Positions 42,184 through 46,402 of a DNA stretch of 64,000 nt are shown here, piece by piece; within the stretch, counting starts at the first letter, position 1; each line of letters begins with the position of its first letter. A model generated the notes under the pieces. That model searched no databases. It saw only the letters and a program-made list of their open reading frames with translations, and was not told the origin of the DNA. Origin of the DNA: Eledone cirrhosa (taxonomy: Eukaryota). Location: NCBI GenBank assembly GCA_964016885.1, contig OZ024753.1, positions 20,150,001 to 20,214,000 on the forward strand. Reading direction: 5' to 3'. The translations under genes were made by a program, and so were the position numbers.

Positions 42184-43175
42184 AAACGGAAAAAATGAAA
42201 CGAAATTTCATTCCCACTCTTAGTACGGCTGTTACTTAAATATAAGTATGTCCACGTACATACATATATGTATACAGACGTACAGTAGTATGTACATATA
42301 TAACATACATGCACACATATATATATATGTACGTATGGATTCACCAAACATTTATTATAATGCTCGGTGTGTTTGTAAACAAACATCCCGTATTAAGCCG
42401 TAGTATCTAGCAACTATTGTTGCTCGTTTGTTCAACACTGACAAGGGAACGCTGTACTAGTTTCAAGCTTATTATCTATCGTCAGCAACGTATACCTTCC
42501 TGCCAGATTGTTGAACGTATATACTTACCTTATGCATATTAACGGCTGAGTAGCCCAATTTACATATCGAGTGGGTTAATCGGCCGGGTGTACCGAAAAC
42601 AATAAACGGAAAAAATGAAACGAAATTTCATTTCTCACGCTTAGTACGGCTGTTACTTAAATATAAGTATGTACACGTACATACATATATGTATCCAAAC
42701 GTACAGTAGTATGTACATATATATACAAACATGCACACATATATATATGTACGTATGGATTCACCGAACATTTTTTTATAATGCTCGGTGTGTTTGTAAA
42801 CAAACATCCCGTATTAAGCCGTAGTGTCTAGCAACCATCGTTGCTCGTTTGTTCAACACTGACAAAGGAACGCTGTACTAGTTTCAAGCTTATTAGCTAT
42901 CGTCAGCAACGTATACCTTCCTGCCAGATTCTTGAACGTATATACTTACCTTATTCATATTAACGGCTGAGTAGACCAATTTGCATATCGAGTGGGTTAA
43001 TCGGCCGTGTACATACTTATATTTAAGTAAAAGCCGTACTAAGAGTGGGAAATGAAATTTCGTATCATTTTTTCCGTTTATCGTTTTCGGTACACCCGGC
43101 CGATTAACCCACTCGATATGCCAATTGGGCTACTCAGCCGTTAATATGCATAAGGTAAGTATATACGTTCAACAA
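42184..43175 (-). mobile_element. Family G tandem element: about 2 units of 421 bp plus an inverted piece; HHRs at 42449-42491 and 42870-42912
   Basis: Minus strand acgttg-CTGACGA-t-agct-aata-agct-t-GAAA-CTAG-TA-cagcgt. 43008-43175 is inverted relative to the units. Confidence 0.85.
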
Positions 43176-44080
43176 TGAAGTATTATTGGTACAAGGTATA
43201 TAGACTAATTTGTTTTTGTGGCCGCTTCTAGCTAAAGCTTCGTTATAAAAGGTTGCATATTTATCGAATACATCCTGGTTAGATGAAAGGTTAGAAATTC
43301 TGAGTGAGATATTATATGCTAGGTTTTTAAGGATAGATCTAGGGTGATTGGATTGTGAGTGTATGTAATGTAAGTTGTGGTTAAGTTTATGGTAAGGTTG
43401 GTAGATACCCATAGATATGTCTAAAGTTATATCAAGGAAATTAACTACTTTACTGGTGTTTTCAAATGTAATAGTGAGACTATAATAGTCTTTGAGGAAA
43501 GTTGTAATAAGTTTTTTATATTTTCAATTTCTGATAGGCTAAGGTTAGTGGAAAGAAGAAGACAGTCATCACGATATAAAGCACCTTTAAGGTTGGGAAA
43601 AGAAGCATTTATGTTAAATAAAAGAAAGAGGCCCACAAGATCGGTAATTTGGGCCGAATCACTAGAGCCCATAGTAATGTCAAATAGATTACTATATGTA
43701 TTTCTGGTCCAGTATTCCTTCTGAAATTCCAGTAGTGTTTGTCTAGCGTGCGTGATAATATCAATGTCATCCATAGTTAAGTTTGATCTATTTTTGGCAA
43801 ATATCAAGGCTTTGTTCAGGAGTATGGGTGATATAGAGGGATAATAAGCATCTATATCGAATTGTAGAAATGAAGCAGATGATTTATTTCTAATATTGGT
43901 AAACCAGTTAATTACCTGGGATGTGTTTTCCCAGCGTGGTAAATTAACATGTTTTCTTAATTGTGGGATGCCTCTGTCTAAATTTTTTTTACTAATGATG
44001 CCAATGTCAGATTTGAAGGGGCGTATAAGTCTTATAGATGGATTAGAGTTAAAGATAAATTTGTGATCTTTCAGGTTATA
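43176..44080 (-). pseudogene. Second Naiad-like PLE reverse transcriptase fragment
   Basis: KDHK, RLI.PFKSDIG, QFDIDAYYPSI, FDITMGSSDSAQITDLVGL, ALYRDD, SNHP...RISNLSSN...YNEAL; paralogous to 2634-3800. Confidence 0.9.
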
Positions 44081-44428
44081 AATCTAAATTCCTTGTATTT
44101 TAAATAAGATCGGTATTTCTCACTAACACATTTACCCTAAAATGTTATTCTCCTTTGATTTTAACACTAGCATTATTCTTTAATAACATCAAATTTTCGT
44201 GTACCTTTCAACGGCTTGACCTCTTTTCATCCCCAAAGTAATATTTTCATTCAAAGTATTCTTTCCATTCAAAACTTAAGTTTGCATTCCTCTACCCCTA
44301 AATTAAATTTCTACTACTACTATTCTATCAACTTGACCACTTACTACTTTTCTATTGGTCAATTCAAAACCTGTTCCCAAACTGACGTATTATATTAAGT
44401 CTTTGTTGGTTTTTTTCAATAAACAAAT

Positions 44429-44568
44429 ATCATTATTTCTGAAGACAGCATATATACGTGTAGGTATGTATATTTCCTCTGATACTTTGTAAAATTTTAA
44501 CATAGATCTATATGATATACATACCAACACACACATATATATCCTAGAAACGATCGTAAAATGATGAT
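44429..44568 (+). ncRNA. Hammerhead motif with about 100-nt helix II (family F, diverged copy)
   Basis: atcattattt-CTGAAGA-c...a-GAAA-CGATCG-TA-aaatgatgat. Confidence 0.75.
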
Positions 44569-44618
44569 TTTTTTAATATAAGGAACTGTTTCTTTGTTTT
44601 TATTCATTGTTTTTATTA

Positions 44619-44649
<31 letters not shown>

Positions 44650-44652
<3 letters not shown>

Positions 44653-45280
44653 AATTTGTTTTGCTAAGTTTCTTATCTGAAAACGTGTGTTGAAACAGAT
44701 ATTTTTTTACTTTGGGAGGGTCATTTTGCCAATTAAAACACACGCACCTGACGAATTTCACTTCAATTTATTATACGTTTCTGGTTGGTTGGTTGGTTGG
44801 TTAGTTCGATAACCGGAAGGTTGTTTATATATTCTCACAGCTCTTTCGTTACACATTTTGTGACCTGCTCAGTGACTAGGTGTTTATTTTGTGTTTCCTT
44901 TGTTCTGTCCTACACCATCTTGTGTGTTGTGTGCTTAGTTTTCGCATGCGTTACATCCGGGTGGGTGTGTTTTTATTTATTTATGTGTTATTTACTTGTA
45001 ACTAGTTGTTTGTTTGTTCTAACTGTGTGTGTCTCATTTGTTTAATTAGTTTGGTTTTTGTGTGAGTCTGTATGTCTTCATTTTGTCCTTAATTACTAGT
45101 TTTGATGTTGCTATTTTACTCATGTTTTCTGTTTAATTTTGGTTGGAGTTCGTTTATGTTTGTCACCTCTGTGATTTGTCTAAGCATTGCATCTTTTCTG
45201 TGCGTGGGTATAATTTTAATCTCTATGTTCTCTAATGTGCCCATATGTTCTATTTTGGCATGTTGGTGGAGTACTGATGA
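44650..45280 (-). mobile_element. Diverged 3' fragment of the 29100-30925 PLE family
   Basis: Matches 14425-15000 (ttgggagggtcat...; gcatgttggtgga; ctctgtgatttgtctaa). Confidence 0.8.
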
Positions 45281-45444
45281 GTTTTCCAATAATAATTAAC
45301 TCCGTACTCGCACCACCAACTACACAAACGAAGACGGGTGAGCTGCATTACGTTGAGTACTCTCCATAATATTACATCGAGATTGACCAGACGGAATGAC
45401 CAATTCTCTCCAGTGGTAAACCAACAAACTTAAATAAATATATA

Positions 45445-46402
45445 TATATATATATAAGTATGTATACGTACATACATATATGCATACAGACGTACAGTAG
45501 TATGTATATAATATATACATACATGCACACATACATATATGTACGTATGGATTCACCGAACATTTATTATAATGCTCGGTGTGTTTGTAAACAAACATCC
45601 CGTATTAAGCCGTAGTATCTAGCAACCATCGTTGCTCGTTTGTTCAACACTGACAAAGGAACGCTGTACTAGTTTCAAGCTTATTAGCTATCGTCAGCAA
45701 CGTATACCTTCCTGCCAGATGATTGAACGTCTGAAAGTATATGCTTTCCTTATGCATATTAACGGCTGAGCAGCCTAATTTGCATATCGATAAATAAATG
45801 TTCGGTGAATCCATACGTACATATATGTATGTGTGCATGTATGTAAATATATATATACATACTACTGTACGTCTGTATACATATAAGTATGAACGTATAC
45901 ATACTTATATTTAAGTAACAGCCGTACTAAGAGTGAGAAATGAAATTTCGTTTCATTTTTTCCGTTTATCGTTTTCGGTACACCCGGCCGATTAACTCAC
46001 TCGATATGCAAATTAGGCTGCTCAGCCGTTAATATACATAAGGAAAGTATATACTTTCAGACGTTCAATCATCTGGAAGGAAGGTATACGTTGCTGACGA
46101 TAGCTAATAAGCTTGAAACTAGTACATCGTTCCTTTCTCAGTGTTGAACAAATGAGCAACGATGGTTGCTAGACACTGTACGGCTTAATTCTGGCTGTTT
46201 GTTTACAAACACACCGAGCATTATAATAAATGTTCGGTGAATCCATACGTACATATATGTATGTGTGCATGTATATGTATATATATATATACATACTACT
46301 GTACGTCTGTATACATATATGTATGTACGTATACATACTTATATTTAAGTAACCGCCGTACTAAGAATGAGAAATGAAATTTCGTTTCATCTTTTCCGTT
46401 TA
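45445..46402 (+). mobile_element. Family G element: inverted part (to about 45792, HHR 45661-45703 minus) plus about 1.4 direct units (HHR 46088-46130 plus)
   Basis: acgttgCTGACGAtagctaataagcttGAAActagTAcatcgt at 46088. Confidence 0.85.

Follow-up and report, generated by a model that had tools for sequence, protein, structure and literature searches.

We have identified, in a 64,000-nt stretch of the Eledone cirrhosa genome (positions 20,150,001 to 20,214,000 of contig OZ024753.1, assembly GCA_964016885.1; hereafter the window, numbered from its first letter), three inserts of a 420-nt tandem unit that carries a predicted type I hammerhead ribozyme. Judging from sequence, the unit is probably a protein-free non-LTR retrozyme (LTR, long terminal repeat), likely copied in trans by an endonuclease (EN)-bearing Penelope-like element (PLE) from one monomer RNA, which is probably circular. 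PLE-driven insertion is well supported because the coupled long and short 3′ ends of the inserts match those of autonomous PLEs and the mode of PLE initiation in vitro; that the unit is a PLE-driven non-autonomous element appears very likely.

Insertion ends of the 420-nt unit

The sequence-only reading of the window had proposed three inserts of an ∼421-bp tandem family, and all three are present (28097–∼28640, 42184–43176 and ∼45452–46401). Their units are 407–434 bp long and 83–95% alike, with 36–39% GC (non-LTR retrozymes have <50%), and they contain no sizeable open reading frame (ORF), as had been stated; the longest ATG-started frame has 53–76 aa (two subfamily A units, read as circles). 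The proposed 1.25–2 units per insert holds for the first insert (∼1.3 units) but not for the other two, which have ∼2.3 units each, all arms counted. We number the unit u1–u420 on the hammerhead strand, i.e. as the reverse complement of 42184–42603.

The inserts end at two fixed 3′ sites. The long site is u420, where CCGTTT is followed by AT; each window insert has one such end, reading ...CATTTTTTCC(G)TTT and then (TA)n. The short site is at about u360–364, where ACTT is followed by ATAT (ACTTATAT), ∼60 nt upstream of the long site. Ends at either site nearly always run into (TA)n. The distance between the two sites, which we call the tail, is 61 nt (42184–42244, minus strand, in the second insert, with a hairpin and a T6 run at 42188–42197). 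Neither site coincides with the predicted ribozyme cut at u149. Genome-wide, the long site continues into TA 3203 times and into a next unit 3377 times. The earlier claim of one fixed 3′ end was right about the shared long site and missed the second fixed site.

The first insert (28097–28640, minus strand) is one-armed, belongs to subfamily B, is 83% like the subfamily A unit and has its long end at 28097. The second insert begins with a full 420-nt subfamily A unit (42184–42603, minus strand), whose long 3′ end at 42184 abuts (TA)n; a second tandem unit (u15–420; 42604–43010, minus strand) has 94% identity with the first, and an inverted second arm (u348–420 then u1–97; 43006–43176, plus strand) is shortened at a junction with a reverse transcriptase (RT) fragment of a Hydra-clade PLE. 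In the third insert, the left arm (45452–45790, minus strand) terminates in (TA)n at the short 3′ site and the right arm (u248–420 plus a full unit; 45793–46401, plus strand) likewise in (TA)n, at the long one. The stretch 45452–45790, previously taken for a 5′ inversion with a variable 5′ end, is therefore a second arm with a 3′ end of its own, and the insert is a head-to-head case of the long+short kind.

Consider next the 131 inserts that were classed after removal of eight duplicate loci (64 best-hit inserts plus 67 taken in order along contig C1). Head-to-head structure with two outward 3′ ends was found in 66 of them. Among the 50 two-armed inserts in which both ends are canonical, 46 combine one long and one short end (22/23 and 24/27; p = 4e-10 versus 50:50); two features lower the weight of this count, namely that the other 16 of the 66, with one non-canonical end each, were excluded from it, and that end classes were assigned by loose alignment bins. 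Three autonomous PLE families of the same genome, used as a control, gave long+short in 9/9 head-to-head pairs, and their tails are ∼60, 48 and 141 nt long. The unit therefore has two 3′ ends with the tail on one side of its inverted inserts, as PLE-mobilized elements do, and the picture of a single 3′ end combined with ordinary 5′ inversions gives way to one of two coupled start sites. In one-armed inserts the 5′ flank is not TA in 57/63 and the 3′ ends lie in (TA)n; in non-LTR retrozymes a target-site duplication, when present, is >4 bp.

Reverse transcription by PLEs is described as having two internal start sites on the RNA; the distance between them gives the tail, which is found in no elements other than PLEs (PMC11167929), and a tail on only one of two inverted pseudo-LTRs (pLTRs) has been described (PMC8557442; PMC3846280). 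Frangieh (2024) reported that in vitro both strands are nicked and extended by a purified PLE protein (PMC11167929). The earlier suggestion of a retrozyme-like element whose multimeric or circular RNA is copied by target-primed reverse transcription is upheld. In length, the 61-nt tail is nearest to that of the autonomous family P5 (∼60 nt); a pLTR comparison found no sequence link between the unit and P5.

The hammerhead motif

All five type I hammerheads claimed for the window were found. The copy at 42870–42912 (minus strand; predicted cut after 42876) is intact, the one at 42449–42491 (minus strand) has a single stem II mismatch, and the one at 28355–28397 (minus strand) is partly decayed, being altered in stem I and stem III; the left and right arms of the third insert carry copies at 45661–45703 (minus strand) and 46088–46130 (plus strand), respectively. 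The ribozyme occupies u113–155. Stem I has 6 bp and is followed by CUGAYGA; stem II, of 4 bp and with a basal U-U, precedes GAAA; stem III has only 1–2 bp within a palindromic ACUAGU, and the cut is predicted after GUA (u149). In its core, its stems and its palindromic stem III the motif conforms to the canonical type I hammerhead of metazoans, which is thought to be active as a dimer (PMC4209133).

Sequence variation supports the predicted hammerhead. Core positions change in 0.8–0.9% of cases versus 2–4% elsewhere in the unit. One stem I pair varies, being U-G in 66, G-U in 47 and A-U in 31 inserts, and stem II is AGCU/AGCU in the unit and GGGU/ACCC in an older relative; this covariation amounts to a few subfamily-level events and not to hundreds of independent ones.

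The family in the genome and its relatives

The hammerhead core pattern has 13,154 exact matches in the 3.0-Gb genome and the reversed-pattern control has none, so the family is not a product of chance. It comprises at least two subfamilies and consists mostly of short concatemers sitting in (TA)n. Most inserts have 1–3 units, tandem runs reach 4.6 units among the inserts examined, and there are some long arrays, e.g. ∼11.5 kb on C1 near 51.78 Mb. Its short tandem units, each bearing a type I hammerhead, are of the kind found in non-LTR retrozymes (150–450 bp). The unit junction was seen in DNA reads of the source organism; a second organism showed it in one contig, and a third gave partial cover.

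A sister family (loci L091–L120 of genome G000) has a unit of 456–519 bp (466 nt in L106), ∼75% like the 420-nt unit, with 10,961 exact matches of one motif and the same two 3′ ends; one of its arrays has 100% identical units, and its unit contains a 112-aa antisense ATG frame. An older relative (L263:734-1036; L332–L361) has 67% identity and shares a promoter-like box, described below, and the short end; no ORF-linked copy of it was seen among 28 loci.

One monomer or a multimer as template

The template was a circle or an uncleaved multimer, because inserts run repeatedly across the ribozyme site and the unit junction and their 5′ ends are not piled at the cut (0 starts in u140–149 and 3 in u150–159, in 332 segments). 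Units on the same strand of an insert differ at 40 of 1159 non-CpG diagnostic sites (3.5%), equal to the background of 3.2%, and opposite arms at 66 of 993. Between inserts the difference is 41.6% with subfamilies pooled; pooling tells against the single-monomer reading, as does the weaker contrast within subfamily A alone (10% within versus 29% between inserts, CpG sites included). Changes common to all units of an insert lean towards A>G on the ribozyme strand (32 A>G versus 11 T>C, p = 0.002; 13 versus 1 for alleles found in three or fewer inserts), and private changes show no lean (108 versus 104). The shared A>G lean fits editing of a self-paired monomer that was copied several times afterwards. 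Two features of these counts reduce their force: strictly insert-unique shared changes number only 3 A>G and 0 T>C (p = 0.25), and one insert (L190; G000:C1:23216800-23219800) holds 16 A>G changes on the ribozyme strand. This insert is, in its own right, a candidate hyper-edited copy.

Taken together, the single-haplotype inserts and the A>G lean favour copying from a single RNA monomer, and we incline, with some reserve, to a single circle as the template. The transcript of a young homogeneous array would equally yield matching units, and an uncleaved multimeric read-through of such an array, copied by the same PLE-driven route with the hammerhead dispensable for insertion, is the alternative that survives best; we judge it rather unlikely. 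It gains from the in vitro finding that PLE insertion is unaffected by hammerhead mutants, the main substrate being unprocessed RNA (PMC11167929), from the cleavage of only 1/9 Xenopus retrozyme dimers (10.64898/2026.07.22.740005), from the existence of long arrays such as that on C1 and from the 8 of 60 same-strand pairs in which units have 2–3 linked diagnostic differences. If, however, the element moved between arrays with no monomer stage, mosaic inserts would be expected, and the diagnostic differences only equal background; nor does that route account for an A>G bias in shared but not in private changes, or for conservation of the hammerhead core.

It is improbable that single units were retrotransposed and only afterwards multiplied in place into tandems, through DNA duplication or unequal crossing-over (a satellite route discussed by Li et al. 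2026). Such duplication likewise makes the units of one locus alike; some long arrays and the identical units of the sister-family array speak for it, and it may account for the rare long arrays. Yet most inserts, of 1–3 units, include a partial unit that breaks off at a random 5′ position and have an exact PLE-type 3′ end. In head-to-head inserts, moreover, each arm runs across unit junctions as far as one of the coupled sites, and the A>G lean of the shared changes points to an RNA step.

Predicted fold and a promoter-like box

Folded as a circle, the monomer is 66–70% paired (z −4.8 to −8.2, 30 shuffles) with the hammerhead domain free, as is characteristic of retrozymes; AU-rich repeats add to this score, and the antisense strand also gives z −3.5 to −6.9. 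A second strong hairpin had been described (cggctga...tcggccg). It folds on the plus strand (z −3.6, 0/200 shuffles) and not on the hammerhead strand (z −1.2), with 76.6% of cells paired on the ribozyme strand and 91.8% on the opposite one, where one pair is broken in 88/137 inserts. Alternative helices have 97–98% of cells paired; in one of them, u27–35 pairs with u385–393 across the unit junction (97.9% paired) and one pair is U-A in 78 and C-G in 42.

The stretch claimed as a hairpin overlaps a box resembling the host U6/MRP promoter (TATGCAAATTGG; 42976–42987, minus strand), with a TATA 42 nt beyond it (42938–42947); the left and right arms of the third insert carry the box at 45775–45786 and 46005–46016. 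The form TATGCAAAT-N-(A/G)G is kept in all four related families, in which exact ATGCAAAT occurs in 20/28, 21/26, 9/12 and 14/21 loci, and the sister family retains the box although one predicted pairing partner differs. In host genes this box, at −76 to −78 with TATA at −30, is found in 3/17 U6 loci (the three top-scoring), in the best of six U6atac loci (as a variant) and in RNase MRP. A transcript starting 30 nt past the TATA would have its start just 5′ of stem I, and each unit likely carries a candidate promoter. The match is limited to the short box and the TATA: whole-block alignment of the unit to the U6 upstream region was not significant, and the U2 upstream regions have no match to the box.

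On the host side, TATG(C/G)(A/T)AAT-N-AG at about −77 is common to the three U6 loci, the best U6atac locus and RNase MRP. Tandem gene arrays were also observed for U6 (∼1.8-kb period) and U2 (∼2.2-kb period) (G000:C19:31.78-31.84 Mb; C3:307.35-307.45 Mb).

Proposed course of mobilization

The internal U6-type box and TATA would drive transcription from a point immediately 5′ to the hammerhead. Read-through RNAs would cut themselves, most readily as hammerhead dimers given the palindromic stem III of 1–2 bp, and the monomer would then be circularized by a host ligase. The footprints show that copies end at one of two internal sites ∼60 nt apart, in (TA)n and away from the ribozyme cut, and that in two-armed inserts one arm comes from the short site and the other from the long one, as in autonomous PLEs. 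A pair of PLE proteins would prime synthesis on the RNA from each side of a DNA break, and the resulting cDNAs would be joined head to head; the RT would circle one monomer more than once, leaving the one haplotype that is seen per insert. In its fullest form this would be a self-cleaving circular RNA parasite that transcribes itself from a host U6-type promoter. A PLE pair would take a single circle as template for rolling-circle reverse transcription at the two ends of a (TA)n break, one always starting at the short site and the other at the long one, so that RNA edits are repeated in each unit. We put this complete scheme forward tentatively.

A number of points weigh against the reading as a whole. 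Rfam gave no hammerhead among the matches listed for the window (150 of 198), nor in the copy with the stem II mismatch, so the hammerhead call rests on pattern, fold and covariation; energy folding recovers stems I and II and not stem III. The parent or driver PLE was not found, with no pLTR similarity among the examined loci or behind the endonuclease of four PLE families. As regards the promoter, the box-to-TATA spacing of 42 nt is 4–6 nt shorter than the 46–48 nt of host genes; the box is absent from 14/17 U6 and 5/6 U6atac loci, which we take to be pseudogenes; the T6 run at u408–413, before the long end, should halt RNA polymerase III before the next ribozyme; and the box and TATA pair occurs in 3/20,000 shuffles of a test whose pattern was composed after the match had been seen.

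The neighbouring RT fragment and the pLTR alternative

The second insert abuts a broken RT/thumb fragment (43177–44083, minus strand) that lies outside the family. It had been called Naiad-like; Naiads have an N-terminal endonuclease and no canonical hammerheads (PMC8557442), whereas this fragment belongs to a Hydra-clade family (N4) with an endonuclease-like region C-terminal to the RT and a pLTR bearing a hammerhead motif. The inverted 3′ untranslated region and own pLTR of N4 follow at 44084–44620 (plus strand), with a long-stem-II hammerhead motif recognized by eye, and end in (TA)n. N4 ORFs reach 839 aa, and the 839-aa ORF (L151) has the motif set described for the Hydra clade, i.e. C-terminal EN, DKT motif, CxCx5C linker, CxxC and CxH motifs and (TA)n targets (PMC8557442), with RWK reading RWR; Pfam gave no match and the assignment is by motifs. 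The idea of a selenocysteine insertion sequence (SECIS) was dropped, the RT not being Naiad. A motif common to the unit and N4, TTCCGTTTAT, was considered as a clue to the partner and rejected as it is not an N4 end (one genome-wide match).

A special link between the unit and the abutting RT is not borne out, as the unit was found at 0/29 other N4 RT loci; in one of 20 longer N4 loci a two-armed unit insert lies 1.2 kb beyond the stop codon. The junction 43176/43177, with 1 nt of microhomology, would most simply be a deletion between two tail-to-tail inserts; a template switch is possible. Hydra ORFs adjoin four independent ends among the 91 non-canonical ones examined, and these abutments are not taken as evidence for the driver because Hydra sequence is very common in the genome.

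No sampled copy of the unit is a PLE terminal repeat, so that the outcome which the sequence-only reading had named as refuting it, a unit that consistently serves as a PLE pLTR, was not found. Flanks searched with 11–12 PLE protein pieces, together with the 91 non-canonical ends, revealed no GIY-YIG stop codon leading into the unit, in a search that sees only PLE families similar to the query proteins. In four other PLE families, the 1.5 kb following the endonuclease contains the unit in 0, 4, 1 and 0 of 30 loci; four such copies that were inspected lie past the end of that PLE and the single case in family P7 is on the opposite strand. It is thus highly improbable that the unit is the pLTR of an autonomous PLE and the inserts its 5′-truncated ends: PLEs do share the tail, the inverted structure and a hammerhead of type I with it, one of its copies adjoins a PLE RT and Xenopus retrozymes are related to pLTRs (10.64898/2026.07.22.740005), but what lies upstream of a unit is another unit, up to 4.6 in a row, no sampled insert is entered from a GIY-YIG stop codon, and N4 has a pLTR of its own. 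Descent of the unit from a pLTR is, by analogy, likely.

At one further locus (L173; G000:C1:18487000-18491600) an 845-bp inverted duplication places a Hydra endonuclease end head to head with the unit, and it looks as if a Hydra element copied a transcript carrying the unit in antisense.

Comparison with known systems

At the level of sequence, the unit meets the definition of a non-LTR retrozyme, an element class that is already known. Like the metazoan non-LTR retrozymes described in PMC7229834 and 10.64898/2026.07.22.740005, it has tandem units in the 150–450 bp range with one type I hammerhead each, low GC, no ORF and a predicted self-paired circle, and the U-U at the base of stem II occurs also in axolotl HHR_Amex2 (PMC7229834). 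Cervera and de la Pena (2020) named PLEs as a strong candidate for the retrozyme driver (PMC7229834), and Li, Clavereau and Pollet (2026) added PLE co-occurrence and pLTR relatedness, stating that the mechanism remains to be worked out (10.64898/2026.07.22.740005). In the accessible text of both papers, PLE mobilization is argued from co-occurrence or pLTR relatedness and not from a PLE tail, coupled ends or single-haplotype inserts; the unit, for its part, is known here from genome sequence. A literature search, with supplements and most subscription papers outside its scope, found no paper on the 420-nt family, nor on PLE tails or coupled ends in retrozymes.

With EN-bearing PLEs, as described in PMC11167929, PMC8557442 and PMC3846280, the unit shares two 3′ ends, a one-sided tail, head-to-head copies, 5′ truncation and (TA)n targets; it differs in lacking an ORF and in that the whole repeat is the unit itself. 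Its ∼60-nt tail compares with 30–40 nt in published EN-bearing PLEs and with ∼48–141 nt in the autonomous families of this genome. Non-autonomous Chlamys PLEs such as MRC1 are likewise PLE passengers with multicopy head-to-tail insertions, but their 3′ ends are like that of the autonomous partner, and Chlamys elements mostly lack hammerheads (PMC8557442); for the unit no resemblance to a partner was found. Newt satellite 2 and the schistosome hammerhead repeats also combine a hammerhead repeat with an internal promoter (a candidate one in the unit), of small nuclear RNA type in newt and of RNA polymerase III type in schistosome (cited in PMC2220036). The box of the unit, unlike theirs, matches the host U6/U6atac/MRP element and not U2, with a TATA spacing 4–6 nt shorter.

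Other elements in the window

Positions 2330–5720 hold an almost complete PLE of the Hydra clade (family N1), whose inverted 5′ pLTR bears a hammerhead-like motif, and more N1 pLTR copies lie at 6112–6493 and 32270–32800. Three or more further PLE families, with GIY-YIG at the C-terminus (P3/P5, P6, P2/P7), are represented by fragments at 14423–15433, 18990–19804, 24595–27460 and 29007–30960; family P6, in which open frames of 777 aa are numerous, is very young. A further type I hammerhead-like motif at 1693–1770 (plus strand) has a 50-nt stem II region. Two dispersed tandem families with units of ∼137 bp and ∼590 bp (7102–7532 and 54937–55244; 8867–10630) recur in many loci, and a motif scan found no canonical hammerhead in them. 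The window also contains a 30-bp minisatellite (46620–∼49000) and, at ∼57000–64000, a ∼54-bp satellite with strand inversions near 61350 and 62400.

Significance

For the return of animal retrozymes to the genome, PLE enzymes and circular templates are proposed rather than demonstrated in the accessible literature (PMC7229834; 10.64898/2026.07.22.740005). Thousands of insertion footprints tie the present family to PLE chemistry, and the existing in vitro PLE assay could be applied to the precise start sites, the template and the candidate promoter that the family specifies. The strict pairing of long and short arms bears on how PLEs form inverted, one-tailed insertions. If the complete scheme is true, a minimal circular parasite would directly show how animal retrozymes mobilize and would explain the one-sided tail of PLEs.

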